Translations under genes and position numbers: made by a program
Shown here: positions 1-13,449 of the stretch, one piece after another
Numbering within the stretch: the first letter of the stretch is position 1
Layout: each line of letters opens with the position of its first letter
Notes under the pieces: model-generated
Databases searched by the model: none
What the model was told of the DNA's origin: nothing
Seen by the model: only the letters and a program-made list of their open reading frames with translations
Source of the DNA: Tannockella kyphosi
GTDB lineage: Bacteria > Bacillota_I > Bacilli_A > Erysipelotrichales > Coprobacillaceae
Length of the DNA: 32,000 nucleotides
NCBI RefSeq assembly: GCF_021054785.1
Contig: NZ_CP088239.1
Coordinates: 750,001 to 782,000, forward strand
Direction: 5' to 3'

Positions 1-555
1 AAGTAAATTTTTTGCAATCTTTAGTCTTGGATACATCATATTAAGCCAGTTTGCGTGGTATTTGTTTTTTGATTTTTCGTTTTTTTGTAGTGGGTTTCCG
101 TCCTCGTCTGCCACACCCTCTGCAACATCACTTTCTTTTTTATCCATTGCGAATTTATCGTTATATACAAAGTCATTACCAGTGTTATATGGTGGGTCTA
201 TGTATATCATTTTGATAGAACCATAGTAATTTTGGCGAAGAAGTTTCAGCACTTCAAGGTTATCGCCCTCAATATATAGGTTTTCAGTTTCTAGTGGGTT
301 TTTGCTACCCGCGGCTATATATTTTAATGTTCTGTTATAAACATCTTCTTGTGATATTTTCTTTGCAGATTGTTTGCCCGACCAAGTAAGCTCGTACTTT
401 TCGCTGTCCACTTCCTCAATCTTCCCCAGTTCTTCCTTTAATGCCTCAACATCAAGCATTCCGTCCTTAACAGCACTAGGGAAAAGCTGTGCTAAGGCTT
501 TTAGATTGTCACCGACAATGTTGTTTATTCCTTGTGGTATTTTATTGTTTTCCAT
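1..555 (-). CDS. Type III-like (Mod) N6/N4 DNA methyltransferase, N-terminal 185 codons; continues beyond the window start
   Basis: Hand translation of the minus strand from the ATG at 555 gives MENNKIPQG...YELTWSGK...LYIEGDNLEVLKLLRQNYYGSIKMIYIDPPYNTGNDFVYND...HANWLNMMYPRLKIAKNLL. The DPPY motif IV and surrounding pattern are typical of Mod-type methylases. The ATG directly abuts the TAA of the upstream gene (553-558). Confidence 0.8.
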   Translation of the reverse strand, partial: MENNKIPQGINNIVGDNLKALAQLFPSAVKDGMLDVEALKEELGKIEEVDSEKYELTWSGKQSAKKISQEDVYNRTLKYIAAGSKNPLETENLYIEGDNLEVLKLLRQNYYGSIKMIYIDPPYNTGNDFVYNDKFAMDKKESDVAEGVADEDGNPLQKNEKSKNKYHANWLNMMYPRLKIAKNLL

Positions 556-1269
556 TTATTTTTTCTCCTTTAATTTTAACAAAATGGTATTTGTTTCTTT
601 CAATTTCTCCTCTAGCATATCTTTAAGTCTTACTATTTCGGGTTTATAGTCAAGTATGGCTGATTTATACAATGACATATCAAAACAAAAATCGAGATTA
701 TGCTCCTTATTTCGTTCATCTATAAAATTACAATTAATTCGTACATCAGTGGCATTCACAAACTTCTTGTCTGAGCTTTTATATTCCGTATCTATTATAT
801 CGACATAAATTATATATTGTTGTTTCGGTGGCAGTGAAATAGGGGTTTGTTCTAATTTTGATATATGTTCAAAGAAAATTTCTTTATATATGCATTTTTT
901 TGCTTCTTGATTAAATTTGATTTTTAATTCTTTAGCACTTGAAATTCCCGTATTTTCAACAATAAAAGCTAATCTACTTTCAATAAATTTAAAATTTATA
1001 ATTATATTAGGCTTGTTCATTTCATCATAAAGTCTGAAGTTTTGCCAAAGTGCCAACGCTCCTAAACAAACAGTTCCTATAAACGTCAAAAAACTACCAT
1101 AAAATGATAACAACTCATAATCTTTAAAAGATGTTACGGTGAAACAAAACCCCTTCATAGGGTATATAAGGTTAATTATTTGTGGAATAAAAGCTGAAAT
1201 AATTATAATAACTACTATAACTATAATCCAAAACCACCATTGTTTATAAAAAGGTTTTTTCTTATTCAA
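556..1269 (-). CDS. Hypothetical 2-TM membrane protein (237 aa), paralogous at its N-terminus to the neighbouring 307-aa protein
   Basis: ORF with a TTG start at 1269 and a GGAGG 7 nt upstream, inside the last codons of the preceding gene. Two hydrophobic helices are present (WWFWIIVIVVIIIISAF and FYGSFLTFIGTVCLGALALW). No recognisable enzymatic motif. Confidence 0.6.
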   Translation of the reverse strand: MNKKKPFYKQWWFWIIVIVVIIIISAFIPQIINLIYPMKGFCFTVTSFKDYELLSFYGSFLTFIGTVCLGALALWQNFRLYDEMNKPNIIINFKFIESRLAFIVENTGISSAKELKIKFNQEAKKCIYKEIFFEHISKLEQTPISLPPKQQYIIYVDIIDTEYKSSDKKFVNATDVRINCNFIDERNKEHNLDFCFDMSLYKSAILDYKPEIVRLKDMLEEKLKETNTILLKLKEKK

Positions 1270-1271
1270 AT

Positions 1272-2195
1272 CTAATCCTCCTCAAATTTCAATTCGTTTT
1301 CATGTCCATAAGAGCATTCTGATATATTTTCATTATTCACGCTAACAGTTATATATTGTTTGAACGATATTCCGGTGATAGTAGTATTAGTGATATATAG
1401 TCTGAAGCATAAACCTCCTAGTGGTTTTTCCCAAAAGTCTTTGTATGTTTCATTCTTAAAATATATAAACATACAAAACAACTCATCTTCATGTTGGTTC
1501 AAGAGTGTTGAGATCCCTGCTTTAGGATGGTTTTGATTAAAACAAACAGCTTGCTCCACCGAAACAGTATCGGTTTTAATGCCTACGATTTCAATTCTAT
1601 CAAATGCTATATGCCTTATAATGGCTTGTGACGTATTGGCAAGTTTGAAATTAACAACTTTACAATATTGCTGAATTTCATAATCTTTCTCATTGTCAAT
1701 ATCGATGTTCAACGTTATATAGTTATTCTTTAATTCCACTGTTTCGCCTGTATGAACACTATTAATTTTATTATGAGATTTAGAAAAATAATACCTTTCC
1801 ATTGGAGCTGTGATAGATGTTGAATTTCTTGCACAGAATGTAGTCTGTCCAATTACAACATCTACAATCTTTATCACGGGTAATAAACTTTGTGCATTGA
1901 TTTTTTGAAAGTAATTATTTTCTTTACTTAGGTTCTCATTGATTTTATTTAGTTTCTTATTTTGATAAAAAGCCAATGAACCCAAGGTAACAGTTCCAAT
2001 AAAAGAAAGTATAGAGCCATAAAATAATATCATATCACTTGCAGAAAATACTGTGTTTGGTAGCCCGTCGGCTGTACCCTTTAAGTATGTATAGTTTATA
2101 ATAAATGGAGTTGCTACAAGTACAAGTATAGTTGCTACTACACTTAGCCAAAACCACCATTGCATATAAAATATTTTTTTATCTTTATTCATCAT
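1272..2195 (-). CDS. Hypothetical 2-TM membrane protein (307 aa), paralogous at its N-terminus to the 237-aa protein
   Basis: The N-terminus, FYMQWWFWLSVVATILVLVA ... FYGSILSFIGTVTLGSLAFYQN, aligns with the 237-aa protein. The C-terminal ~210 aa is unrelated and looks beta-rich. The start lies 9 nt after the stop of the upstream gene. Confidence 0.6.
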   Translation of the reverse strand: MMNKDKKIFYMQWWFWLSVVATILVLVATPFIINYTYLKGTADGLPNTVFSASDMILFYGSILSFIGTVTLGSLAFYQNKKLNKINENLSKENNYFQKINAQSLLPVIKIVDVVIGQTTFCARNSTSITAPMERYYFSKSHNKINSVHTGETVELKNNYITLNIDIDNEKDYEIQQYCKVVNFKLANTSQAIIRHIAFDRIEIVGIKTDTVSVEQAVCFNQNHPKAGISTLLNQHEDELFCMFIYFKNETYKDFWEKPLGGLCFRLYITNTTITGISFKQYITVSVNNENISECSYGHENELKFEED

Positions 2196-2204
2196 ATACC
2201 ATAT

Positions 2205-3017
2205 TTAACCTTTCATTATTTCTTCTTTACTAACAAAGTATTCTTTGTGCATACTTGCGTTATCATCCAATCTTAAAATAGGATTCTCATGGTCGTAAAT
2301 ATATCTTGAATTGTATTCATAAATTCGTAAACACACTTTTTCTATTAGAAACAACACTTTTTCGTTATCTGATAATTTGTCATTGTTATCAAACATTACT
2401 TCAGATAAAGGAACGAGATATTCATAACAGTAATACGTGCTGTTTTTTGTATAGTCTTTTAATACACTAGGAAATTTCAAAAAAACAGCTAAATCGCTTA
2501 TAAATTCAGGAGCAGAAAACAACGCAGTATAGTAACTGTTTTGATGAAGTTGATCCTTTAGAGAAAATCCATTAAAACAATAATCTTGTCTATCTTGATA
2601 GTATCCTAATCTAACTTTTAGACGAGCTACATTAGCTGTGCTAGAGTAGTTGTCAAGATCCAACTCTTGCAATACCCCTTTATAGTAGATCTCGATATAA
2701 TTATTATTTTCTTGAAAAGCGATTTTGTATGAAGCTAAATAATCACTCAATGCTGTTTTATTTAATAGCAAATCCCTTAAATTCAATCCGTTATCATTTA
2801 TATCCGAATTCAATCTTCTACCTAAATGAAAGAATAAAATCTTATCTAATTTCTTTACAGGTCTACACTGCTTTACAAATTCTTTAATGCCTTGGCAAAA
2901 AATATCAGAACTCATAGCAGCACTGCTTATTTGATGTAAAAGACTTTCTTCGGAAACATCTAAGTATCTACAAAGAGAGTCTATCATAGTTTCTTTTGTA
3001 TATGTTTGTATATGCAT
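2205..3017 (-). CDS. Hypothetical protein (270 aa), no recognised domain
   Basis: The ATG at 3017 immediately follows the TAA of the DUF4391-like gene, with a GGAGG 8 nt upstream. The only motif-like element I see is RYIYDH (an Rx4H pattern) near the C-terminus, which is weak on its own. Confidence 0.55.
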   Translation of the reverse strand: MHIQTYTKETMIDSLCRYLDVSEESLLHQISSAAMSSDIFCQGIKEFVKQCRPVKKLDKILFFHLGRRLNSDINDNGLNLRDLLLNKTALSDYLASYKIAFQENNNYIEIYYKGVLQELDLDNYSSTANVARLKVRLGYYQDRQDYCFNGFSLKDQLHQNSYYTALFSAPEFISDLAVFLKFPSVLKDYTKNSTYYCYEYLVPLSEVMFDNNDKLSDNEKVLFLIEKVCLRIYEYNSRYIYDHENPILRLDDNASMHKEYFVSKEEIMKG

Positions 3018-3734
3018 TTAACACTCCTCCAAGCAACTAATATGATTTTTTATCTTTTTATTTAGCTTTACTTTCTCGATATTTCCACTAGCTTTTACTA
3101 AGCTAAGTTTAAGTAATTCCAACCCTCTCAAATTAGCATACAGCTTACGAACTTTACTTTCACTATACCAAATATCCTTGCGCATTAAAAATTCTTTACT
3201 GTTTGCATACACCTTACTATTTGTCAAAATATATGCCTTAACATACATTTCAAGGTAGGTAGTAACTTTGTTTTGCTTGCCAATAAGATTATCTAGTGCT
3301 AGGTGGTTTTCCAGTTCCTTTTTATCAGTGCTAGTGATAGTGGTATAAAAATCACTTGTCACTAGAGTATCAGTCACTACAATTTGTGTATTATCTGTTT
3401 GGCTAAGTCTTTTAAGTGCGAAAGAGTAAACCTCTTTGCTATTGTCGTGTAGCCTTAATACACAAGGTGATTTGATGATAGTTTGATACATATTAGCTAA
3501 AAAAGTAGCCTTTTTAATATCTACGAGTTCAAGGTCATAAAACTGAATTGTCCACACATTATATTCATCATTTATCACCGATGGAATTTCTTCGCCAATA
3601 ATCTGATATGAAAGTGTGCAGCTCTTAACATTGTCTTTGATTTTCTTTTTAACGGCAGGCTTTAGTTCCTTTGGAATAAAGTCTTTCATTGGGAGCTTTA
3701 TATCGACTTTGTACTTATCATCTAGTTTTAGCAT
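3018..3734 (-). CDS. DUF4391-like protein (238 aa), helicase/methylase-associated
   Basis: Its size, its position between an SNF2 helicase and a Mod methylase, and the N-terminal pattern (...KDFIPKELK...) match my recollection of DUF4391. This is not HMM-verified. The start overlaps the helicase stop (TAATG at 3732-3736). Confidence 0.5.
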   Translation of the reverse strand: MLKLDDKYKVDIKLPMKDFIPKELKPAVKKKIKDNVKSCTLSYQIIGEEIPSVINDEYNVWTIQFYDLELVDIKKATFLANMYQTIIKSPCVLRLHDNSKEVYSFALKRLSQTDNTQIVVTDTLVTSDFYTTITSTDKKELENHLALDNLIGKQNKVTTYLEMYVKAYILTNSKVYANSKEFLMRKDIWYSESKVRKLYANLRGLELLKLSLVKASGNIEKVKLNKKIKNHISCLEEC

Positions 3735-6700
3735 TATTCCACCACCAAAAATGAGATAAGCTCAAAATCGTCCGTTGTATCATCAGCAAAAGCATTATTA
3801 AAACCACCAAAGTCAAATGACATGGAAATAGCTTTTTCTTCTTCAACACCCTTTATCGATTTCACAGCCTTATTTAGCAAGTCAGAGTAGAACGACATAT
3901 TATTGGTGTGGCTTGTTCGGTTAAGAAACTTGTCGAAATATTCTTTCATTGGCTGGCTTTTGCCATAGCATAATTTACGGAACACTTTTAAAACTTCTCT
4001 AGCTTGACTGTTTCCATATAAGATTTCCCCATCATTACTAATATAGATCGTGTAGTATGGATAGAGAGATGAGTCGGATTTTGGTTTGTCGCTTAAATTG
4101 CTATGCTTAAAGCAAAGCAACACACCATGATTTTCTCCATCTGTAACGGAATAAATTCCATTAGGGACTTTTTTAAGTTCAGCATGATTGCTTATATAGG
4201 AAGAAAGCTCGTGTAGATACTCATTCATATTTAGGTCAGATAGAGATATGTTTTCATTTGCGTCATCAATATCTATCACTTCATCTTTCAGTCTTTCAAG
4301 CTGTCTTTTTCTGAAATTAAAATCATTCATCTCGGGAGTTAGGACATCTTCATCACCAGTAGAAACAAGGTTGAGTGTAGTCATTTTACCTTTTACTCGT
4401 TGCTCTAATCCAAGATACTCGTTTAATTCCATGTTAGGGAAGAAGTTTATCATTTGTATCTGTTCGTTTGTGCTACCGATACGATCAATTCTACCAAATC
4501 GCTGTATCAGTGATACAGGATTCCATTGAATATCAAAGTTGATAACAGTATCGCAGTCTTGTAAGTTCTGTCCCTCTGAAATACAATCTGTACCAATAAG
4601 AATATCTATTTGTTCTTTGTGTGGTATTTCTTTCTTCGTTTTAGATTTAGGAGAGAAAGCACACAAGACATCATTAAACTTAGCATCTATTAATTTGTTG
4701 GTGGTTTTAGCACCTTTACCAGTAACAACAGCAGAATGAATATTATTGCTTTTTAGCTCACTTGCGATTTCTTTATAAATATAGTCAGCAGTATCAGAAA
4801 AAGCAGTGAAGATTAGTAACTTTCTATTACCTACGTTATAAGGTGTTGTAGTGATTTTCTTAATAATAATTTCTTTAAGTTCTTCTATTTTAGCATCTCG
4901 GTTTAAGTCCAAAATTTGCTTTGCTTCAGCATAGATTTTTTTCAATATGATTTTATCACCTTCGAGATCGTTTAAATAATCTACAATACGCAAATGTTTT
5001 ACTTCAATTTCATACTTGCCTTCAAGATATGGATATTCTTCATCACCAAAATCACCTTGTTCTTCATCTACATATCCACCATTTTCAAGCCGATAAATTG
5101 TATTATCAATCTTTTCAAGTAGTCGTCTTAAAGTTTCAGCGAATGAAAATACAGAACTTTCAAGTCTTTTAAATAGATTAAATCTATGCAAGACTACCAT
5201 ACCTTTTGATTGAGTATCAAAATCCATCTTACCACCACGTTTACCAGTTAATTTGTACTTTTCGAGGTATATTTTTTGGAACTCTGATTTAATATATTTA
5301 GTTGGAGTATAAACCGATAAGTTTAATACCTCTAGTAACTCGTTAGTATCCTCAAATTTCAGCAAAATAGACATTGTATCTATGTCATTGCGAATAGTAT
5401 CGGGTTTATTCTTTTCGGGAAATTTACCGACGCTGCTGCTTCCATAAAATCCAGTAATGTGTTTTCTACTTCGTGATATGGTCAGTATTTCCAGTAGTTT
5501 ATAAAAATCTGATGGCAAGCTATCTAGCAATAAATTTTTGTTTTTACTATCTTCTCTTTCCCAAAGATTGATAGCAGCAGAAGTCTTTCTAAGTAGATTA
5601 TCCACACTAGAAATACCCTCACCTTGGAATGCAAAATCTTCATCTCTTGAAATAATGCTTATCTGATTTTTCAAGTCTACTAAACTGTTATTTACTGGAG
5701 TAGCAGAGAGTAATAGCACCTTTGTACTATTCTTCCCCTTTTTGATAACATCTTGTAGTAGCCTTGCGTACCTTGTCATAATCAGCTGATCATTATCGTC
5801 ATATCTGTCTTTACGATTTCTAAAATTATGGGACTCATCAATTACAACTAAATCGAAATCGCTCCAGTTGAATTGTTTTAAATCATGTCCCGATGTAGAC
5901 ATACCCTTATATCTCGATAAGTCAGTATGAAACAGTATTCTGTAATTAAATCTTTCATTAAGGAAACTTCCTTTGTTATCCCCTTTAAAAGAATTCCAGT
6001 TATCATACAGTTTAGCAGGTGTTAAAACTAGAACATTATCCATTTTGATTTCAAAATATTTGATTACAGCAAGAGCTTCGAATGTTTTACCCAAACCAAC
6101 AGAGTCAGCAATAATACAGCCACCATATTTATGAAGCTTTTGAATAGCTGATACAACGCAATCTTTTTGAAAATCAAATAGTGCATTCCATATTTCTGTA
6201 CTTTTGAATTTTTGGCTATCATTTTCAAATCGCTCAACACCACTATCTAATTGATGTCCAAATAGCTCGTTTAGAGTGAAGTAATATAGAAACTCTGGCG
6301 AGTGGTCTTTATATATGTAAGCCAAACTTTGTAATAATTCCTGTTTATAATCAGCAGAATATTGTTCGTTATACCAAATTTGCTCAAAAACATTTTTAGC
6401 GTGGTTTATTTGTTCCTTATCTATACTGCCATTAAGCATAGTATCAAAATTAAAACTTTGTATGCCACGTTTTCTCTTGGGTGTAAGCTCTAATGACGAT
6501 GATCCTTGTATCATGAAGTCGTCATCTATAATTAAAACATTGCCACCAATATTAACTTTAGGATTAACTTTCTTTACATTAACATTTTTCTTTATGAAGT
6601 CGTGCATTGCTTTTGCTTTCGCAAAATGTTCTAATTTGTTTTTCTCTACAATGTCATAAGAGTTGTATAAAATATCATTCGGTGATATTTCAAACTCGTG

Positions 6701-6907
6701 GGATATTTCGGTCTTATCGGGTACGAATTTTGTATCTCTAATTATAAAATTAATTTCTTTTACATTTTTTAAGTTCTTTTCTAATAATGCAAACACCGAT
6801 AAAGTAAGTTTATCATTCACTATGTTTATCGTAGCATTAGTTTTAGTTTTAAGAACATCATTTATTTTTTCAATAAGATGCTCCGAATTGTTCACTACGT
6901 TACTCAT
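3734..6907 (-). CDS. SNF2-family (SF2) helicase/ATPase with an N-terminal PLD-like region
   Basis: Helicase motifs are present: ADSVGLGKTFEA (I), VVIDESHNFRN (II, DExH), LLLSATPVNN (III) and GTDCISEGQNLQ...QRFGRIDRIGS (V/VI). The N-terminal ~170 aa contains ...GGNVLIIDDDFMIQGSSSLE, resembling the GSxN half of a PLD fold without a clear HxK. The ORF is open to 6943, but the ATG at 6907 has the best RBS (AGAGGA, 8 nt upstream). Confidence 0.85.
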   Translation of the reverse strand: MSNVVNNSEHLIEKINDVLKTKTNATINIVNDKLTLSVFALLEKNLKNVKEINFIIRDTKFVPDKTEISHEFEISPNDILYNSYDIVEKNKLEHFAKAKAMHDFIKKNVNVKKVNPKVNIGGNVLIIDDDFMIQGSSSLELTPKRKRGIQSFNFDTMLNGSIDKEQINHAKNVFEQIWYNEQYSADYKQELLQSLAYIYKDHSPEFLYYFTLNELFGHQLDSGVERFENDSQKFKSTEIWNALFDFQKDCVVSAIQKLHKYGGCIIADSVGLGKTFEALAVIKYFEIKMDNVLVLTPAKLYDNWNSFKGDNKGSFLNERFNYRILFHTDLSRYKGMSTSGHDLKQFNWSDFDLVVIDESHNFRNRKDRYDDNDQLIMTRYARLLQDVIKKGKNSTKVLLLSATPVNNSLVDLKNQISIISRDEDFAFQGEGISSVDNLLRKTSAAINLWEREDSKNKNLLLDSLPSDFYKLLEILTISRSRKHITGFYGSSSVGKFPEKNKPDTIRNDIDTMSILLKFEDTNELLEVLNLSVYTPTKYIKSEFQKIYLEKYKLTGKRGGKMDFDTQSKGMVVLHRFNLFKRLESSVFSFAETLRRLLEKIDNTIYRLENGGYVDEEQGDFGDEEYPYLEGKYEIEVKHLRIVDYLNDLEGDKIILKKIYAEAKQILDLNRDAKIEELKEIIIKKITTTPYNVGNRKLLIFTAFSDTADYIYKEIASELKSNNIHSAVVTGKGAKTTNKLIDAKFNDVLCAFSPKSKTKKEIPHKEQIDILIGTDCISEGQNLQDCDTVINFDIQWNPVSLIQRFGRIDRIGSTNEQIQMINFFPNMELNEYLGLEQRVKGKMTTLNLVSTGDEDVLTPEMNDFNFRKRQLERLKDEVIDIDDANENISLSDLNMNEYLHELSSYISNHAELKKVPNGIYSVTDGENHGVLLCFKHSNLSDKPKSDSSLYPYYTIYISNDGEILYGNSQAREVLKVFRKLCYGKSQPMKEYFDKFLNRTSHTNNMSFYSDLLNKAVKSIKGVEEEKAISMSFDFGGFNNAFADDTTDDFELISFLVVE

Positions 6908-6963
6908 TTGTTTCATCCTCTCATTTCTTGTTTGTACATACAAAATTAGCTGTGGAATGCCTT

Positions 6964-7179
6964 TTATTCATTAATTGTTTCTCGTACAACATCACATATA
7001 TCTCCAATGTTGCAATTTAAGTAATCACATATTCTGATAAGAACTGATAGTGAAACTTCTTCACTCTTATTTAATTTGTTCAAAGTGCCTGTCGCTAAAT
7101 TTAAATCTTTTCTCATTGTTGGTTTTGAAATATTTTTCTCAATAAGTAAAATCCATAGCTTTTTATAGCTTATCTTCAT
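6964..7179 (-). CDS. Small XRE/Cro-type HTH regulator (possible controller protein of the downstream operon)
   Basis: The ~71-aa sequence MKISYKKLWILLIEKNISKPTMRKDLNLATGTLNKLNKSEEVSLSVLIRICDYLNCNIGDI is a typical short HTH_26/XRE protein. The ATG at 7179 has a GAGGTG RBS 7 nt upstream. The ORF track starts at a TTG at 7185. Confidence 0.75.
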   Translation of the reverse strand: MKISYKKLWILLIEKNISKPTMRKDLNLATGTLNKLNKSEEVSLSVLIRICDYLNCNIGDICDVVRETINE

Positions 7180-7232
7180 ACTCAATCACCTCGTTTTTCT
7201 TTTTCGTTTTACGCAAAATCATCTTATCCTAT

Positions 7233-7261
7233 ATTATATCACAAAGATATCTAAAGCACAA
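7233..7261 (-). promoter_or_regulatory. Sigma-A-type promoter for the XRE-helicase-methylase operon
   Basis: The minus strand reads TTGTGC (7261-7256), a 17-nt spacer, then TGaTATAAT (extended -10, 7241-7233), about 45 nt upstream of the XRE start. Confidence 0.4.
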
Positions 7262-7275
7262 TAAAACCTACCTTC

Positions 7276-7309
7276 TTTTTATCAAAATAATGCAACTTCT
7301 TGATAAAAA
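7276..7309. promoter_or_regulatory. Perfect 10-bp inverted repeat (TTTTTATCAA-N14-TTGATAAAAA), candidate operator
   Basis: Read directly from the sequence. It lies just upstream of the predicted -35 of the minus-strand promoter. Confidence 0.35.
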
Positions 7310-7576
7310 TTATTATCCTGTTGTAATTTTAATAAGATCAAGTGGCACGAGTATAAAAGCATTTTTTTGCTTACAAGTCATTTTCCTTCAAGCATAAACA
7401 AGTTTTGCCTTGCTATGAAAGCGGTATTTGTAATTTTATAAGAGCTTTTTACACAGCTTGTCGATACAAATTACATTATTTTATCTTTCAACAGTATATG
7501 ACAAATTCTGCCATTACATTGTTGTATTATAGGTTTATGGCTATAAAGGTTAGCCTATTAACACAATAGATGTGAG

Positions 7577-7942
7577 GTGAGAGAAATTAGTGGTGATAAA
7601 CCGATTTACAAGAAACTGATAGGTATTATCGAAGATGATATTTTAAATGAAACGTACAAGGAGGATGAAATTATTATTTCAACAACACAGATTAGCAAAC
7701 AGTATGAAGTAAACTCAACAACAGCAATGAAAACGATTAGTGTATTAAAGGAAAATGGAATTATTTATAAGAAACGAGGAATTGGAATGGCAGTTACAAG
7801 TAATAGCAGGAGCATTATTTTAAGCAAACGAAAAATGATGTTCATGGATCAATTACTACCGGAACTTATTTTAGAAGCAGGTAAGTTAGATATATCGAAA
7901 AAAGAATTAGCGACTTTGATATTGAAAGGTGAACTTTATTAA
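7577..7942 (+). CDS. GntR-family (YtrA-like) transcriptional regulator
   Basis: A winged-HTH pattern is present: PIYKKLIGIIEDDILNETYKEDEIIISTTQISKQYEVNSTTAMKTISVLKENGIIYKKRGIGMAV. The short C-terminal tail is typical of the YtrA subfamily. GTG start. Confidence 0.75.
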   Translation: MREISGDKPIYKKLIGIIEDDILNETYKEDEIIISTTQISKQYEVNSTTAMKTISVLKENGIIYKKRGIGMAVTSNSRSIILSKRKMMFMDQLLPELILEAGKLDISKKELATLILKGELY

Positions 7943-8112
7943 GAGATACATTTGCCAATAAATGTAGTAATTATCTACTGTTGTATAATGAAATTTCAGA
8001 ACATGAAAGTATCATCTATTATTATTTAACACAGCTATGTGGGGTAATACTATGAAGTACACATTATTAGATAACGACGATAGTATACATAAAACACTAA
8101 AATACATTGAAA

Positions 8113-8144
8113 GCAGTAATCCGAAAAGGGTTACTGCTTTTTTT
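8113..8144 (+). terminator. Rho-independent terminator
   Basis: GCAGTAA-N11-TTACTGC stem followed by T7. Confidence 0.5.
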
Positions 8145-8164
8145 ATAAGTTGCGAATTTTGTAG

Positions 8165-8214
8165 AAAAAGGCGATTTTTTGACACGTACAGTGTTCAAAA
8201 GGTCGCCTTTTTTT
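8165..8214 (+). terminator. Rho-independent terminator (long imperfect hairpin)
   Basis: AAAAAGGCGA ... TCGCCTTTTT outer stem with an inner TTTTGACAC/GTGTTCAAAA pairing, followed by a T-run. Confidence 0.5.
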
Positions 8215-8329
8215 GTTACATAAATAATTTGATTTTAATTTCAAGAAGATGGGAGTGCTACAAGCTCAAGTATCCGTAATTTTTTAATTTTTGACAAACA
8301 ACAAATTAAAAAATTAAAGGAGAAAGAAA

Positions 8330-8812
8330 ATGAAAACACCCAAAGAATTTGATTATGACTTATGGAAAGATGAAACAGGAAGAGGTTTTATCAGAGTAAA
8401 ACGAACTGGAGAGGTTTGTGAGGTAAATGATGATACATTTAGAGTTTTAAGAAATGAAGCGATGGCGATCTATCGCAATAACAAAGGTGTTCCAGTCTAT
8501 GGAGTTGAAAATGGTAAAAGTGTAGTAGTTCGTTATACTACCAACTTAGCTTTATACATAGAGGAAGGCAATGAGGATATCGGTGCAGACTGGAACATTG
8601 ATAAAACAGACTTAGAAAATGAAATACTAACAAAATTACTTATAGAAGATTTTTGTGAATTACTTACGGACAAGCAGTTAGATGTATTGGAGCAATGTTT
8701 AAAGAAAGGTATGCTTCCGGCTGAGTATGCAAAAGAAAAAGGAATTAGCAAGCGTGCTGTCGGGTACACGATTGAGGGGATTGAAAAAAAAGCAAAAAAG
8801 TTTTTTGACTGA
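8330..8812 (+). CDS. Sigma-70 region-4-like HTH protein (mobile-element regulator)
   Basis: The C-terminus, LTDKQLDVLEQCLKKGMLPAEYAKEKGISKRAVGYTIEGIEKKAKKF, resembles a sigma-70 r4/LuxR-type HTH. Good RBS (AAAGGAG). Such proteins commonly sit upstream of serine recombinase modules in clostridial elements. Confidence 0.6.
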   Translation: MKTPKEFDYDLWKDETGRGFIRVKRTGEVCEVNDDTFRVLRNEAMAIYRNNKGVPVYGVENGKSVVVRYTTNLALYIEEGNEDIGADWNIDKTDLENEILTKLLIEDFCELLTDKQLDVLEQCLKKGMLPAEYAKEKGISKRAVGYTIEGIEKKAKKFFD

Positions 8813-9349: not shown

Positions 9350-9715
9350 ATGCAGAAAAGTAGAATATATCGTGGAGATATTTATTACTGTGACTTAGAG
9401 CCAGTAAAAGGTTCTGTACAAGGTGGTGTAAGACCAGTGTTAATCATTCAAAATCAAATAGGTAACGATTATGCTCCTACACTAATAGTTGCAGTTATAA
9501 CAACTAATATGAAGAAATTAAATCAGCCTACGCATATCGTAATAGGCAAGAATTATGGACTTGAAGATCCGTCAATGGTTATGCTAGAGCAGATTAAGAC
9601 TATTGATAAAAGTGAGCTTAGAAGCTATGTAGGAAGAATTAGCGAGCCTTTTACCATTCAAAAAATAAATCAAGCCTTAGAAATCAGCTTAGGATTAAAA
9701 AATGATGGAATATAG
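9350..9715 (+). CDS. mazF: MazF/PemK-family endoribonuclease toxin
   Basis: The sequence RGDIYYCDLEPVKGSVQGGVRPVLIIQNQIGNDYAPTLIVAVITT...THIVIG...SMVMLEQIKTIDKSEL is the canonical PemK pattern. RBS AAGAGG. Confidence 0.85.
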   Translation: MQKSRIYRGDIYYCDLEPVKGSVQGGVRPVLIIQNQIGNDYAPTLIVAVITTNMKKLNQPTHIVIGKNYGLEDPSMVMLEQIKTIDKSELRSYVGRISEPFTIQKINQALEISLGLKNDGI

Positions 9716-9776
9716 TTTTTGCTCTGTCATAACCCTTTGTCCCAAATCATACTATGAAACAGGAGGTGCAGAAACT

Positions 9777-10019
9777 ATGGTGAATTTAGATGATTTAAAG
9801 AATGTTGACCCACGAACAGTGGATAGAAGTTCTCTTGTGGAGAGAAGCTCCGTGAAAATAGACCCTAATGCTACAAAAGAAGAAAGATTAAGTGAATATA
9901 TCAAGCAAATTAAAAATCCGTATTGTTATCTCGATGGAAAGACTGTTGTTAAAATTAGCTTTGCAAATACGGATACTTCTATTGAAGATTGTATTTCTAA
10001 TTATTTAAAAGGTGTATAA
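9777..10019 (+). CDS. DUF6870-like small protein (80 aa)
   Basis: The sequence MVNLDDLKNVDPRTVDRSSLVERSSVKIDPNATKEERLSEYIKQIKNPYCYLDGKTVVKISFANTD... matches my recollection of the small IKNPYCF-motif proteins found next to serine recombinases. An AGGAGG RBS lies at 9761-9766, so the start is taken at 9777 rather than 9702. Confidence 0.55.
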   Translation: MVNLDDLKNVDPRTVDRSSLVERSSVKIDPNATKEERLSEYIKQIKNPYCYLDGKTVVKISFANTDTSIEDCISNYLKGV

Positions 10020-10113: not shown

Positions 10114-11745
10114 ATGCCGAAAAAAGTGTATAAGGCAGTAGTCTATTGCAGGCTTTCAAAAGAAGATGGCGATAAAGTAGAAAGTAATAGTATTCGTGGA
10201 CAAAGAGCTTTTTGTGAAGAATTTATATCTAAGCAAAAAGATATAACAATTGTTCATGATCCTATTGTTGATGATGGTGTGAGTGGTGTTTCTTTTGAAC
10301 GAGCTGGATTTAAAGAGCTTGAAGAAGAAATCAAAAAAGGAAAAGTAGATTGTGTTGTAGTGCGTGACTTATCGAGGTTTTCTAGGAACTATATTGATGC
10401 AGGAAGATATTTAGAGAAAATCTTTCCCAATCTAGGTATTAGGTTTATAGCTATCAATGATAATTATGACAGTTTAACCAGTGACCCACAATCAGATGCT
10501 TTTGTTTTACCATTCAAAAATCTAATCAATGACACCTATTGTAAAGATATTTCAGTTAAAATTCGTTCTAGCTTAGAGATTAAGAAAAAGAATGGAGATT
10601 ATGTTGGTCCATTTTGTCCTTATGGATATAAGAGAGATGAAATAGAACGACATAGATTAGTAGTTGATGAAAACACAAGAGAAACAATACAGATGATTTT
10701 TTCTTTGTTTAAAGATGGCATGAGTATCGGGAAAATCAAACAACGACTAAATGCCACTGGTATATTGCCACCAATGGATTATAAGCGATCTACGGGTGTT
10801 AATTTTGAAACTGTATTTAAGACAAGCGATACAGCAAAATGGGAATACAATACTGTTAAACGCATTCTCACTAACGATTGTTACATAGGTGTCCTAACAC
10901 AAGGAAAAAGAGGGACACCAAACTACAAAGACCGTAGAACCAAAAACAAAGATGAAAGTGAGTGGGTGAAAATTGAAAATTCCCACGAAGCTCTTATTTC
11001 TTATGAGGATTTTGTAGCAGTAAATAGTCTATTAGCTAGAGATATGCGTTCAACAGTTGATGATAGCGAAAATTCATTATCGGGATTTGTGTTCTGTGCC
11101 GATTGTGGAGCAAGTATGATACGCAAAACTGTTCCATCAAGAGGGAAAAAATATGTATATTATATTTGTTCAAAAAACAAAAAGCACAAAGTTTGTAGTA
11201 CGCATAGCATGGCATTAGTTGAAGTAGAAGAAAAAGTACTAAATGGAATTAGAGATCAAGTAGAACTTGTTGTTAATCTTGAAAAAGCACTTGAACTTAT
11301 AGATGAAACACCTAGTAACAATAGGCAGATATTTAGTTATGAAAAACAGATTGATACATTGAAAGCTGAAATAGAGAGATACCAAAAACTTAAACTTAGG
11401 CTGTACGAAGATTATAATGATGAAATAATCACGAAAGATGAGTATTTTGAATTCAAGAAAATCTACACTTCTAATATAGAAGAAAAAGTAAAGACAATTA
11501 AGCAACTTGAAAAAGAATGTTCACAAGCAATAGGCACTGTTAGTTCTTCAAAAACATGGATAGCAATATTTAAAGAGTATGAAAATTTCATAGCACTTAA
11601 TCGAAGGGTACTATTATCGTTGGTAGATAAAATACTGATTTATGAAAATCATGTTATTGGAGTTGTATTTAAGTACAAAGATGAATACGAAGAAACTTTA
11701 GATTTTATTTTAAAGTTCGAGAATAAAGAAAAAATTGCAGGATAG
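10114..11745 (+). CDS. Large serine recombinase 1 of 3
   Basis: N-terminal resolvase domain (VVYCRLSKEDGD ... VVVRDLSRFSRN), recombinase domain, zinc ribbon (CADCG...YYICSKNKKHKVCSTH) and a C-terminal coiled coil. Confidence 0.9.
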   Translation: MPKKVYKAVVYCRLSKEDGDKVESNSIRGQRAFCEEFISKQKDITIVHDPIVDDGVSGVSFERAGFKELEEEIKKGKVDCVVVRDLSRFSRNYIDAGRYLEKIFPNLGIRFIAINDNYDSLTSDPQSDAFVLPFKNLINDTYCKDISVKIRSSLEIKKKNGDYVGPFCPYGYKRDEIERHRLVVDENTRETIQMIFSLFKDGMSIGKIKQRLNATGILPPMDYKRSTGVNFETVFKTSDTAKWEYNTVKRILTNDCYIGVLTQGKRGTPNYKDRRTKNKDESEWVKIENSHEALISYEDFVAVNSLLARDMRSTVDDSENSLSGFVFCADCGASMIRKTVPSRGKKYVYYICSKNKKHKVCSTHSMALVEVEEKVLNGIRDQVELVVNLEKALELIDETPSNNRQIFSYEKQIDTLKAEIERYQKLKLRLYEDYNDEIITKDEYFEFKKIYTSNIEEKVKTIKQLEKECSQAIGTVSSSKTWIAIFKEYENFIALNRRVLLSLVDKILIYENHVIGVVFKYKDEYEETLDFILKFENKEKIAG

Positions 11746-11754
11746 GAGAAAACA

Positions 11755-13449
11755 ATGGCAAGAAAAAGTAGAGTAAATATTATGCTAGATGAAAACGCAG
11801 TAGTTCAGATGTCAAATAGATTTCCTACTGCAATTTATGCAAGGTTATCAGCAGAAAATAGTGGCAAGGGAACTGATAGAGATATTATCGCAAACCAAAT
11901 TGAAGTGTGTAAGAGTTATATAGGAGAAAACCCACATTTGGATTTAATGGATATATATACTGATGATGGCTACACAGGAACAAAGTTTGATAGACCGGCA
12001 TTCAATCGATTAATGGACGATGTTAAAAGTGGCAAGATTAAATGTATTGTAGTCCGTGACCTCAGTCGTTTTGGTAGAGATTATATAGAAACTGGAACAT
12101 ACATGGAGAGAATTTTTCCGACTCTAGGACTTAGGTTTATAGCTGTGAATGAACGATACGACAGCTTTGAAACCGACCATACAAACGAAGCCTTAATGAT
12201 ACCACTTCAAAATATGATAAATACTCTTTATGCAAAAGATATTTCACGTAAAATATCAGCTTCGCATAGGACAAGAATATTATCAAGGGATTTCAAAAAG
12301 AATATGATACCTTACGGTTATAAGTTAGATGAAACACGATATGAAGTTTCTATCGATGAAGTAGCAGCTCATTATGTAAGGTTTATATTCAATTGGAAGA
12401 TAGAGGGAAAATCTATTAAGCAAATGATTGTGATGCTAGAGGAAATGAACGCACCTAATCCTCATATAAGAAAAATTCAAACTGGATTACGAGGTGGTCA
12501 AGTAGAAAACTTTGGAGGTTGGCATTATTCTACCATTCAAAATATGCTTTGCAATCATGGTTATTTGGGACATACTGTATTCGGAAAAACAGAAATTGCA
12601 TTGTATAAAGGCATAAATAGGAAAGAGTATAGAGAACCCGATAATTGGGTTATATTAGAAAATACTCATGAGCCTATTATTTCGGAAGATGTCTTTAACA
12701 AAGTACAAGAAATAAGAAAGTTAGGAGCTGAAAAGAAACAGGAAAGTATTAAACGAACAGAAAAGAAAAGAGCAAAACTTATAGATTTGTTCAAGGGTAA
12801 GATTTTTTGTAGTGACTGTGGCAAAACGCTATCCTATATTAGAATGGTTGATGGAAATAACTTTGGTGCTTACTATACATGCCCAACTTACGCAAGAAAA
12901 AAAGTATGTACAAAACATAGCGTAAATTATTTAATAGTTAATGCAACGGTTCTCAAAGTAATTCAAACACAAGTTAAAGTAGCTCTTGATTATGAAGTTT
13001 TATTAAATAAAATAAAGCATAGTGAAAGTGATAAGAGCATTAGAGATAAGCAAAATGCTAATATTTCCAGTTTAAATCTTAAGATAAATGGTATCAGTAG
13101 AAAGCGAAGTCGGTTATATGAAGATTATGCTGAAGGGGTTTTAGATGAGGAAGAATATACTTTTGTGAAGCAGAGTTATGATGATGACTACAATAGTTTA
13201 AAAATGTTATTAGATGAAGCATTGCAACGTCGTTCTAAATTCAATGAAGCTATGTCTAGTGATAACAAATGGATCAGCTTAATGAAGTCTGTGAGTTCAG
13301 CTAAAATATTAACACAAAGTCTTGTAGACGAAGTTATAGAAAAAGTATCGGTACTTGAAGATGGAACACTAGATATTGCAATGAAATATTTCGATGTATT
13401 TTCTCTTATGCAAAATACTGTGGCAAAAGTGCAGGAGGTGACAGTATGA
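11755..13449 (+). CDS. Large serine recombinase 2 of 3
   Basis: AIYARLSAENSG ... IVVRDLSRFGRD, and zinc ribbon CSDCG...YYTCPTYARKKVCTKH. Confidence 0.9.
   Translation: MARKSRVNIMLDENAVVQMSNRFPTAIYARLSAENSGKGTDRDIIANQIEVCKSYIGENPHLDLMDIYTDDGYTGTKFDRPAFNRLMDDVKSGKIKCIVVRDLSRFGRDYIETGTYMERIFPTLGLRFIAVNERYDSFETDHTNEALMIPLQNMINTLYAKDISRKISASHRTRILSRDFKKNMIPYGYKLDETRYEVSIDEVAAHYVRFIFNWKIEGKSIKQMIVMLEEMNAPNPHIRKIQTGLRGGQVENFGGWHYSTIQNMLCNHGYLGHTVFGKTEIALYKGINRKEYREPDNWVILENTHEPIISEDVFNKVQEIRKLGAEKKQESIKRTEKKRAKLIDLFKGKIFCSDCGKTLSYIRMVDGNNFGAYYTCPTYARKKVCTKHSVNYLIVNATVLKVIQTQVKVALDYEVLLNKIKHSESDKSIRDKQNANISSLNLKINGISRKRSRLYEDYAEGVLDEEEYTFVKQSYDDDYNSLKMLLDEALQRRSKFNEAMSSDNKWISLMKSVSSAKILTQSLVDEVIEKVSVLEDGTLDIAMKYFDVFSLMQNTVAKVQEVTV

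Follow-up and report, generated by a model that had tools for sequence, protein, structure and literature searches.

The window analysed here, a 32,000-nucleotide stretch of DNA from Tannockella kyphosi, carries at its left end an operon of seven minus-strand open reading frames. A preliminary description had interpreted these as a candidate composite defence system, and re-reading the sequence returned all seven frames where it had placed them. Pfam domains across the operon are HTH_26, SNF2/Helicase_C/ResIII, DUF4391 and N6_N4_Mtase; a Pfam search with the three proteins inserted between DUF4391 and the methyltransferase (270, 307 and 237 amino acids) gave no match. From upstream to downstream, the features are:

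7233..7261, minus strand: promoter-like sequence upstream of the XRE gene (TTGTGC, 17 nt, TATAAT with a TGn extension), found by eye and tentative
6964..7185, minus strand: small XRE/Cro-C1-type HTH regulator (HTH_26, 1.9e-17)
3734..6943, minus strand: SNF2-family helicase with an N-terminal PLD-like domain, core component (PADLOC PDLC01075 'HKD+Snf2', 4.6e-211, full length)
3018..3734, minus strand: DUF4391 protein of 238 amino acids, core component (PF14335, 4.3e-35)
2205..3017, minus strand: p270, a soluble 270-amino-acid protein, embedded module 1 (family of 108 homologues)
1272..2195, minus strand: tm307, a 307-amino-acid protein with two transmembrane helices (2TM), embedded module 2a (AF2 model, family search)
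556..1269, minus strand: 237-amino-acid paralogue, embedded module 2b (TTG start 2 nt after the 2a stop)
1..555, minus strand: type III Mod methyltransferase, first 185 codons, core component (PADLOC MTase_III, 1.2e-70; PF01555)

Only the N-terminal part of Mod lies in the window, as its gene exits at the left edge. Direct reading confirms the tight packing reported for these genes. Specifically, the helicase stop and DUF4391 start overlap (TAATG, 3736-3732), the DUF4391 TAA abuts the next ATG (3020-3015), a 9-nt spacer separates the 270- and 307-amino-acid genes, the TAG of the latter is followed after 2 nt by the TTG of the 237-amino-acid gene (with GAGGAGG within the last codons of the 307-amino-acid gene), and the 237-amino-acid TAA abuts the Mod ATG (558-553). 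Translational coupling had also been proposed between the XRE and helicase genes, but these two are not coupled: their spacer is about 20 nt long when measured to the first TTG and about 55 nt when measured to ATG 6907. The latter, where the PADLOC alignment begins, is the likely start of the helicase, which spans 1069 amino acids from the TTG. A terminator scan of positions 1-8400 returned one weak terminator-like site, within the 237-amino-acid gene (shuffles, mean 2.9), and thus no internal terminators above chance. We infer that the operon genes are co-transcribed.

The XRE frame encodes 73 amino acids from a TTG, although the protein is probably 71 amino acids from ATG 7179, and it has a VanU-like match (2e-20) that falls under the NCBIfam cut-off. 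This regulator heads the operon in the window lineage, as had been claimed, but it is not a conserved part of the core: a homologue lies directly upstream of the helicase in one of 41 loci with enough upstream sequence. The promoter-like sequence was not listed by a consensus promoter scan (its -35 has 3/6 matches), in which such sites are in no excess over shuffles. Three serine recombinases abut a truncated spoIVA, in agreement with the proposal that the locus lies on a mobile element.

The helicase carries SNF2-rel_dom and Helicase_C domains by Pfam, and GLGKT, DESH and SAT motifs are seen in its translation. As to the PLD half of its earlier label, 'SNF2/PLD-like', Pfam detects no PLD domain, and the N-terminal domain aligns weakly to the PLD of vaccinia F13. 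Its HKD motif has degenerated to GGN...D...GSSS, and each of the 54 full-length homologues likewise lacks the His and Lys. By the HKD criterion the SNF2-DUF4391 pair is not a nuclease, so it most likely acts as a DNA translocase or sensor. The DUF4391 gene directly follows the SNF2 gene in all 80 loci sampled, and a profile search for a PDB relative of its product found none.

Mod carries the motif IYIDPPYNTG (N6-adenine, DPPY). A metagenome contig, L039, matches the 555-nt Mod fragment of the window at 99.6% identity and holds the full Mod (658 amino acids) followed by Res (1025 amino acids; REase_III, 3.9e-191), the gene that had been predicted to lie past the left edge. The order SNF2-DUF4391-Mod-Res is found in all 80 sampled metagenome loci where the contig is long enough, consistent with the earlier recognition of helicase, DUF4391 and Mod as a recurrent type III-like arrangement. 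The host thus looks like a common, widespread four-gene type III restriction-modification (R-M) variant, assisted by a helicase whose PLD-like N-domain would be inactive. Res proteins combine an SF2 ATPase with a PD-(D/E)xK nuclease. From what is known of these families, Mod would methylate an asymmetric site on one of its strands, leaving unmethylated DNA to be cut by Res. The SNF2-DUF4391 pair is a conserved accessory.

This host shares with classical type III R-M (EcoP15I-like Mod2Res) a Mod that matches type III models, a Mod-then-Res order on one strand and, in L039, a full-length REase_III match for Res, which has ResIII, DEAD and RE_endonuc domains. Unlike in the classical enzymes, which are not known to need either protein, an SNF2 helicase and DUF4391 always precede Mod here. 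A PLD-fold domain at the N-terminus of an SNF2 helicase, next to an N6-adenine methylase, also recalls Hma, 'type-2 BREX-related' (type-2 BR) systems and class 1 DISARM, and the helicase is partially matched by the DrmD, HmaA and BrxH HMMs. However, the HKD motif, which has been proposed as the main nuclease of type-2 BR systems (PMC12839542), here lacks His and Lys, and in place of DUF499/HmaC ATPase, DUF3780, DrmA/DrmB or PglZ the locus has DUF4391 and a type III Res. Defence genes are also known to be inserted preferentially in Hma, a hotspot for them (PMC11232893; PMC12839542).

Genes are inserted at two junctions of the host: DUF4391/Mod (junction A) and Mod/Res (junction B). Among the 80 metagenome DUF4391 loci, junction A is direct in 50 and holds inserts in 30, and junction B is direct in 32 of 51 and holds inserts in 19. 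When the loci were dereplicated at 95% DUF4391 identity, 43 clusters remained. At junction A, 27 of these have a direct junction, 11 have inserts and 3 are polymorphic; at junction B, the two genes are adjacent in 15 clusters and separated by inserts in 11. The inserted frames represent 29 protein families. Of the 78 that encode at least 100 amino acids, 75 (96%) lie on the core strand. Identified inserts include GmrSD, ThsA (SIR2-STALD) with a TIR ThsB (Thoeris), DUF2971 with AAA_15, YhcG/DUF1016, Abi_C, AbiH, SIR2 with HerA, AAA_5, and the PADLOC candidates PDC-S32 and PDC-S31. All annotated inserts at both junctions are defence genes or PADLOC candidates, and those tested included neither transposases nor metabolic genes.

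The p270 protein matches nothing in Pfam, PADLOC, PHROG or NCBIfam. Its AF2 model (pLDDT 91.7) matches no PDB fold and gave one fold match, to an uncharacterised viral protein. The family has 23 invariant residues, including R68, R136, D145, C147, N149, D155, E171, C197, K220, R231, D242 and N245, and this set of invariant polar residues appears enzyme-like. Compared with close relatives, the p270 of the window has a 1-nt indel at 2209, with a C-terminus about five residues shorter, and a 24-nt deletion.

In 36 genome loci, p270 homologues have no DUF4391, helicase of this type or 2TM gene nearby. The family also adjoins Gabija and a type I R-M, and Shedu; within BREX, homologues are found singly, after BrxL and GmrSD and between PglX and PglZ. 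Neighbours within two genes on either side match mad2/3, HEC-05, NsnA, BrxL, SduA, LmuB and others. Further homologues occupy conjugative-element regions (LPD25 polyvalent protein, relaxase, DUF3991-Toprim), and one is a moron between the tail genes and the tape-measure gene of a Ruminococcus phage. Many p270 loci are in conjugative elements, which are a home of anti-defence genes as well. At one other locus (L044), p270 sits between DUF4391 and Mod with the 2TM genes absent. The closest p270 homologue (48% identity) follows DUF4391, so p270 may have a longer history here than simple cargo.

The AF2 model of tm307 (pLDDT 85.1) has helices at residues 13-38 and 52-102 and strands across 108-298, predicting that a 2TM hairpin at the N-terminus is joined by a long stalk helix to a C-terminal domain of beta strands throughout. 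The predicted N-in/C-in topology would place the beta-sandwich in the cytoplasm. Foldseek gives weak matches to ApaG beta-sandwiches and Kir-type 2TM channels (TM-score ~0.25). With 2TM Abi effectors and Kir/KirBac channels, tm307 shares two N-terminal transmembrane helices followed by a predicted cytoplasmic beta-sandwich, and weak full-length matches include Kir6.x, GIRK2 and KirBac (E ~2e-3, TM-score ~0.24). Unlike in Kir channels, a loop of just 13 or so residues connects the helices, and both the pore helix and the TxGYG filter are absent. The modelled likeness is one of layout and is not evidence of channel function. Pfam and PADLOC find no match of the 2TM proteins to SLATT or another effector family. 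The 237-amino-acid protein is 49% identical to tm307 over 83 N-terminal residues (E 3e-16), and this identity across the first 80 residues supports its TTG start. Its C-terminal region is shorter and different. The paralogy described earlier for the two proteins is clear only in their 2TM N-termini.

The tm307 family comprises 1462 cluster representatives, from which about five independent contexts were sampled. L125 has the order SNF2-DUF4391-2TM-2TM-Mod, a tandem pair without p270, and none of the 80 sampled DUF4391 loci holds a 2TM-family gene. In L139-143 a tm307-type gene follows a DrmD-like SNF2 gene, overlapping both neighbours (by 4 and 8 nt), beside a type III Mod (5.7e-204) and with DUF4391 absent. 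Its product is 31% identical to tm307 (residues 47-285 versus 50-307), despite a Mod only about 38% identical. In Faecalibacterium a 2TM-family gene follows AbiLi (1.6e-77) and AbiLii after a 152-nt gap, in a trio that stays constant while both flanks vary. A type III Mod-Res lies near the family gene in L137, L138 has one beside a ParA-like gene only, and three of four viral-contig matches lack an adjacent R-M. The occurrence of tm307-type genes beside SNF2/type III systems in three deeply diverged arrangements, those of the window, L125 and L139-143, exceeds what random cargo would give and could reflect a functional tie.

Taken together, the operon is best explained as a type III R-M host with two independent cargo modules at its DUF4391/Mod junction, a reading to which we give a probability of roughly 0.62. 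What is directly observed is the gene content, the conserved core, the insertion hotspots at the junctions, the ability of the modules to occur apart and the defence genes around them. The alternative that had been favoured, in which self/non-self discrimination by Mod, Res, SNF2 and DUF4391 signals to p270 and the membrane proteins as effectors or sensors, would equally be expected to show the five consecutive overlapping, abutting or ≤9-nt junctions, undivided by any terminator above chance. The entire arrangement is also kept in four related contigs, and p270 and the 2TM genes each occur once more at this junction in other DUF4391 lineages. However, those contigs are about 95% identical to the window and so are not independent instances; 50 of 80 core loci are empty at the junction and others are occupied there by unrelated systems known to be autonomous, Thoeris and GmrSD among them; p270 lies mostly far from any such system; and it is found together with the 2TM genes only in the window and its near-identical relatives. 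Integration is thus unlikely. The three genes are not one conserved insert and do not co-occur with helicase/DUF4391/Mod loci elsewhere. Singly, each module does recur (p270 in L044, the 2TM pair in L125), and the trio is two separable modules. The preliminary interpretation is partly supported, including its statement that the three genes match no named system (Pfam, PADLOC, NCBIfam, PHROG).

Somewhat less improbable, though still doubtful, is that p270 alone is cargo and the 2TM/beta-sandwich proteins are optional subunits recruited by NTPase-based DNA-sensing modules, where they might tether a complex at the DNA-entry membrane or be an NTPase-fired membrane effector. A sandwich on the cytoplasmic side by predicted topology would fit this role, as would the near full-length match of the L139-type protein and the position of 2TM genes, which directly follow an NTPase module in four unrelated settings (the window and L125, SNF2-DUF4391; L139-143; Faecalibacterium, AbiL; L137). 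Against it stand the 0/80 count in DUF4391 loci, the ParA-only neighbourhood of L138, the viral contigs without R-M, the gap after AbiLii and the small number of contexts sampled. It is least likely that the inserts have no part in defence, with p270 a conjugative-element anti-defence or establishment gene and the 2TM genes unrelated membrane cargo in a permissive 'genomic sink', an idea raised in discussing embedding (10.1101/2024.01.29.577857). Several p270 loci do lie in conjugative backbones by methylase-helicase polyvalent proteins, DUF6664, DUF3991-Toprim and relaxases, and the window itself is on a mobile element. Yet a cell that co-transcribed an anti-restriction gene within its own restriction operon would defeat itself, the annotated inserts are uniformly defence genes or PADLOC candidates, and p270, which also occurs on chromosomes in BREX and by Gabija or Shedu, is all but missing from plasmids (0/72,556) and phages (1/50,697).

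The host-and-cargo reading matches defence-system embedding ('guilt-by-embedding'), which Payne et al. 2024 surveyed in Hma, BREX, DISARM and type I R-M (10.1101/2024.01.29.577857) and of which PrrC in EcoprrI and BrxU in BREX are worked examples. In both cases co-oriented extra genes lie between core genes of a multi-gene methylation-based system (96% here versus 96.7% of published embedded genes; 10.1101/2024.01.29.577857), and the junctions here also hold autonomous systems (GmrSD/BrxU-like, ABC-ATPase modules, PDC-S31/S32). In contrast to the published cases, p270 and the 2TM family match no HEC/PDC model in PADLOC-DB 2.0.0, and whereas PrrC is functionally tied to EcoprrI, the link of cargo to host here is one of gene context. 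The host also differs, being a type III R-M with SNF2 and DUF4391, and the locus is thus a known phenomenon in a new host system. The cargo modules would ride on the host transcript and its translational coupling, where p270 would be an enzyme or a sensor and the 2TM pair would act at the membrane in abortive infection or exclusion; the biochemical activities of all components, host and cargo, are putative. Judged by guilt-by-embedding and genomic context, both modules most likely provide autonomous second-line functions against phages and other mobile genetic elements.

All seven open reading frames listed in the preliminary description are present on the minus strand of 1-7185. They encode an XRE regulator, an SNF2 helicase, a DUF4391 protein, a 270-aa soluble protein (p270), two proteins with two transmembrane segments (2TM) of 307 and 237 aa (tm307 and tm237) and a Mod methylase, of which the window holds the first 185 codons of a gene running past its edge. 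The domain calls made from sequence inspection were likewise recovered by model searches (HTH_26, SNF2/Helicase_C, DUF4391 at 4e-35 and N6_N4_Mtase). Near-forced co-translation had been proposed for the whole operon, and the five junctions from the helicase to Mod, read directly from the sequence, are as claimed:

3736-3732, minus strand, TAATG overlap of the helicase stop and the DUF4391 start
3020-3015, minus strand, DUF4391 TAA abutting the p270 ATG
p270 to tm307, minus strand, spacer of 9 nt
tm307 to tm237, minus strand, TAG, 2 nt and then a TTG start, with GAGGAGG within the last codons of tm307
558-553, minus strand, tm237 TAA abutting the Mod ATG

The XRE gene, however, is uncoupled from the helicase gene. 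Its stop lies about 55 nt from the ATG at 6907, the most likely helicase start because the full-length PADLOC alignment begins there. A terminator scan of 8.4 kb returned one weak terminator-like site, below the number obtained for shuffled sequence.

Exact-sequence look-ups of the window's own proteins returned no records, and the leftward extension was taken instead from a 98% identical homologue in the metagenome contig L039. This contig belongs to a set of relatives (L039-L042) with DNA about 95% identical to the window. It carries a complete Mod of 658 aa followed by a Res of 1025 aa with ResIII, DEAD and RE_endonuc domains (PADLOC REase_III, 3.9e-191), just where a Res gene had been predicted to lie off-window. 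The plasmid collection contained no match to the DNA of the region, DUF4391, p270, tm307 or P0221. Identity to these relatives varies along the operon as a mosaic:

DNA identity of the window to L039/L040, gene by gene
SNF2 helicase, 93.2% (1000-nt overlap with L040)
DUF4391 gene, 83.7%
270-aa gene, 92.8%
307-aa gene, 98.5%
237-aa gene, 99.7%
Mod, 99.6% (over the Mod fragment in the window)

The low value for the DUF4391 gene (3018-3734), compared with 99.6-99.7% in Mod and the 237-aa gene, suggests that its allele was replaced locally or that it is under strong diversifying selection. Relative to L039, the p270 gene of the window lacks 24 nt near 2907-2918 and has a 1-nt indel at 2209, close to its 3′ end. 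The protein is 270 aa in the window and 282 aa in L039, and the 9-nt spacer that follows its gene in the window is a 4-nt overlap with the next start in L039.

The backbone of the operon is a type III restriction-modification (R-M) system. The 185-aa Mod fragment matches MTase_III (1.2e-70, PADLOC) and PF01555 and contains a DPPY motif, which places it among the beta-class N6-adenine methyltransferases of type III systems, and L039 supplies the corresponding Res. As in other type III enzymes, hemimethylation of an asymmetric site would be expected, with ATP-dependent cleavage of DNA that has two inversely oriented unmodified sites. Scanning metagenome contigs with a DUF4391 alignment yielded 80 loci, in which gene order was mapped with the window proteins and the Mod and Res of L039. 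The order SNF2 helicase, DUF4391, Mod, Res is constant across all 80, and wherever the sampled sequence reaches far enough (51 loci) Res comes after Mod. In this variant the SNF2 helicase and DUF4391 form a conserved, uncharacterised accessory pair. A full-text literature search found no functional study of DUF4391, and its profile retrieved nothing meaningful from PDB sequences. The XRE protein had been described as a C-protein-like regulator, but among the 41 loci with enough upstream sequence just 1 carries a homologue immediately before the helicase gene. We reject it as a conserved controller on this count; the regulator is lineage-specific here.

The helicase matches PF00176 (2.2e-08) and PF00271 (3.3e-15), has GLGKT (Walker A) and DESH motifs, matches CHD1L, Snf2 and RapA in the PDB, and is already modelled in PADLOC as 'HKD+Snf2' (4.6e-211). 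Its N-terminal domain contains the motif GGN-VLII-D-DDFMIQ-GSSS (residues about 130-165, at about 6440-6560), and the window protein and 54 of 54 full-length homologues share the PLD signature (G/N)GN-[IV]LII-D...G-S-S-S, where catalytic members of the superfamily have HxK(x)4D(x)6GSxN. Despite the name of the PADLOC model, the catalytic His and Lys of HKD are both absent from all of these proteins, which have Gly and Asn instead. Pfam PLD models (PLDc) do not match the helicase, and the sole PDB similarity of the N-terminal domain is a marginal alignment to the vaccinia PLD-family protein F13 (E 0.019). A PLD-like fold is plausible for this domain, but it does not qualify as a catalytic PLD/HKD enzyme, and an active HKD nuclease in the helicase was rejected on the motif. 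Because these residues are missing, the nuclease of the system should be Res. Retention of the dead motif across the clade narrows the possible roles of the uncharacterised SNF2-DUF4391 pair.

The operon lies outside BREX and DISARM, to neither of which the preliminary description could assign it. None of the seven proteins matches PglZ, BrxC or PglX in PADLOC and, although p270 homologues occur within BREX loci elsewhere, the operon itself has no BREX core. DISARM is expected to include DrmA (a DUF1998 helicase) and the DUF1998-associated DrmB with DrmC or DrmD/DrmMI, whereas here the helicase lobes match DrmD partially (score 149 against the DrmD-like NCBIfam cut-off of 610) and the other genes match no Drm model. 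Unlike the Hma and type-2 BREX-related systems, the operon has no HmaC/DUF499 ATPase or DUF3780; its helicase matches HmaA (1.7e-27) in the C-lobe only.

Two junctions of the SNF2-DUF4391-Mod-Res core accept additional genes:

Between DUF4391 and Mod, genes directly joined in 50 loci, with inserts in 30 loci
Between Mod and Res, genes directly joined in 32 loci, with inserts in 19 loci

Dereplication at 95% DUF4391 identity gave 43 clusters. DUF4391 and Mod are direct neighbours in 27 of them, inserts separate the two in 11, and the junction is polymorphic in 3; Mod and Res are adjacent in 15 and have inserts between them in 11. The inserts represent 29 protein families, and 75 of their 78 open reading frames of at least 100 aa lie on the core strand (96% co-oriented). 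Every insert with an annotation, at either junction, is a defence gene. Between DUF4391 and Mod lie GmrSD, a Thoeris set (SIR2-STALD ThsA with TIR proteins) and DUF2971, alone or accompanied by an AAA_15 ATPase; YhcG/DUF1016 nucleases, Abi_C, AbiH, SIR2 with HerA and an AAA_5 protein occur between Mod and Res. The DUF2971 inserts match PDC-S31, and a recurrent 299-aa insert, likewise between DUF4391 and Mod, matches PDC-S32. Payne et al. described embedding, with a co-orientation of 96.7%, in Hma, BREX, DISARM and type I R-M (10.1101/2024.01.29.577857), and Hma has been called a defence-gene insertion hotspot (PMC11232893). The hallmarks used for guilt by embedding are all found here: inserts lie between core genes and are co-oriented with them, the core genes are adjacent elsewhere, and known systems occupy the same junction.

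Other cargo was seen between Mod and Res. A cassette of three proteins, of about 133 aa (with 2-3 predicted TM helices), about 177 aa and 197-203 aa, recurs in 5-9 loci (L076 6845-8747; L079 15152-16471; L069, L084, L095, L098, L102, L116 and L119); Pfam and PADLOC returned nothing for this cassette, a further embedded candidate. In L143, a ParE toxin/RelB antitoxin pair occupies 4288-4915 on the opposite strand, which is another kind of cargo at the Mod-Res junction of a distantly related SNF2-2TM-type III system.

The p270 protein shows 100% identity to a hypothetical protein of Tannockella kyphosi. It has 108 homologues of about 280 aa and belongs to no family in Pfam, PADLOC-DB 2.0.0 (including HEC and PDC; E <= 0.01), PHROG or NCBIfam; one uncharacterised viral protein matches it. 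Its AlphaFold model (pLDDT 91.7) has no significant PDB fold match, and a profile search found no PDB sequence relative. There are 23 invariant residues, including R68, R136, D145, C147, N149, D155, E171, C197, K220, R231, D242 and N245, and because these include Asp, Cys, Asn, Glu, Lys and Arg our guess is that p270 might be an enzyme or a sensor.

Many PADLOC families are matched among the two neighbours on either side of p270 homologues. One adjoins Gabija and type I R-M in Sporosarcina, and others adjoin Shedu, follow BrxL and a GmrSD protein, or are flanked by PglX and PglZ in BREX. Homologues are also found in conjugative-element regions with LPD25 methylase-helicase polyvalent proteins, DUF6664, DUF3991-Toprim, relaxases and serine recombinases. 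They are rare in viral contigs (6 loci). The homologue in Ruminococcus phage NatCom_2329 (L127 7001-7834; PV036414.1 35317-36150; 38.5% identity) is in a moron position, between tail genes and the tape-measure gene. The closest homologue (48% identity, contig L044) lies between DUF4391 and a type III Mod, without 2TM genes, and the surroundings of p270 in 36 genome loci contain no DUF4391, no helicase of this type and no tm307-type gene. The idea that p270 and an upstream partner of 500-600 aa form a two-gene system was rejected, the upstream genes being mutually unrelated (GmrSD, a kinase, a TerB-like protein and unknowns). A 293-aa 2TM neighbour of p270 in the BREX locus of L027 has no BLASTP similarity to tm307 and was dismissed as a relative. 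In L037 (3714-5701), the homologue downstream of BrxL and GmrSD is apparently split in two by a 366-aa open reading frame, possibly an insertion sequence. L037 and L023 have identical GmrSD_N scores for 599-aa proteins, though they are assigned to different phyla.

The two 2TM proteins had been called paralogues, which holds for their N-termini (49% identity over the first ~80 residues) but not beyond. Neither matches Pfam, PADLOC-DB 2.0.0 (including HEC and PDC; E <= 0.01) or NCBIfam, and PHROGs gave no family, with TM-segment noise alone for tm237. A word-indexed search found three relatives, whereas a full profile search extended the family to 1462 cluster representatives (411 at E <= 1e-10). 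Common to them are the 2TM N-terminus and an ENNxLQK helix, with C-termini that vary. For viral contigs the broad alignment was too diverse, and a narrower one yielded four loci. The family profile found nothing meaningful among PDB sequences. In the tm307 model (pLDDT 85), residues 13-38 and 52-102 form helices, and an all-beta domain comes after them. Because basic residues precede TM1 and follow TM2, both ends of the protein should be cytoplasmic. Foldseek returned weak matches, to ApaG-type sandwiches and, along the entire protein, to Kir-type 2TM channels (TM-score ~0.24). The likeness to inward-rectifier-type K+ channels is one of layout only, since the inter-helix loop has 13 residues (39-51) and no pore helix or TxGYG filter, and a channel of this type was rejected.

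Relatives of tm307 accompany several systems. In L125/L126, the SNF2 helicase (80% identical) and DUF4391 (74%) are followed by two tandem 2TM paralogues and Mod, with no p270. L139-L143 carry a DrmD-like SNF2 protein, a tm307 homologue (31% identity over nearly its full length) that overlaps both neighbours, a type III Mod (~38%), the ParE/RelB pair and Res, with no DUF4391. In Faecalibacterium (L144-L151, 6964-9876) an AbiLi-AbiLii-2TM block is constant while both flanks differ between strains and contain Wadjet, Schlafen/AlbA_2 or PTS genes. Further 2TM genes lie near a type III Mod/Res (L137) and beside a ParA-like gene (L138).

The preliminary description had joined p270, tm307 and tm237 to the methylation module as one composite system. 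That idea fails its own test of co-occurrence because the trio is confined to near-identical relatives (~95%), and the comparative data do not support an integrated new architecture. The best-supported reading is a nested locus, in which a common SNF2-DUF4391 type III R-M system holds two separable cargo modules, p270 and the tandem 2TM pair, at a DUF4391-Mod hotspot; both modules would be expressed through the host operon. Gene context suggests a defence role for each, and we would guess that the 2TM pair is a membrane-acting abortive-infection or exclusion module. The main rival is a mixed model in which the 2TM proteins are an optional accessory or effector of NTPase modules. It is kept because 2TM genes recur just downstream of such modules in deeply diverged systems, more than random cargo would predict; no tm307-family gene was found in the 80 loci with DUF4391 or the 36 with p270.

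A more ambitious version, which we consider unlikely, is that the 2TM/beta-sandwich family (~1,460 representatives) is a widely shared, hitherto unrecognised membrane effector or tether for NTPase-based modules that sense nucleic acids (SNF2-type III R-M with or without DUF4391, and AbiL), coupling DNA-level sensing to the membrane, and that p270 is an anti-phage enzyme with a new fold, encoded by a single gene and spread through its embedding in BREX and type III systems. If this were true, a single transcript of the operon would carry three layers of immunity, each with its own mechanism.

The nested locus resides on a mobile element, as had been proposed, with three serine recombinases to the right of the operon that abut a 5′-shortened spoIVA:

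7577-7942, GntR-like regulator, right of the operon
8330-8812, HTH protein, right of the operon
9350-10019, MazF/PemK-family toxin gene (5e-29) overlapping a downstream DUF6870 gene (3e-29)
10114-14996, three tandem large serine recombinases
About 15062 (open from) to 16261, spoIVA reading frame directly after the recombinases, with SpoIVA_middle and SpoIVA_C only

The MazF/PemK and DUF6870 proteins may form a toxin-antitoxin pair on the same element. This spoIVA presumably lacks roughly the first 90-95 codons, judging by the B. subtilis SpoIVA sequence. Because the recombinases adjoin a spoIVA frame without its first codons, the element that bears the defence operon seems to split spoIVA as a skin-type intervening element would. 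No report of a spoIVA-interrupting element was found in the literature searched.

Embedding has been described before, and the genes of the core, while uncharacterised, already have catalogue entries. What this locus adds is a further embedding host, the SNF2-DUF4391 type III variant with its two hotspots, together with two candidate families that lack annotation (p270 and 2TM/beta-sandwich) and the clade-wide loss of the HKD residues in the SNF2 helicase. The nested locus does not overturn current ideas, and the functions of its cargo are putative. The published embedding search strategy is nonetheless directly applicable to the SNF2-DUF4391 type III variant at its two junctions, and p270 and the 2TM/beta-sandwich proteins provide two testable candidate families.
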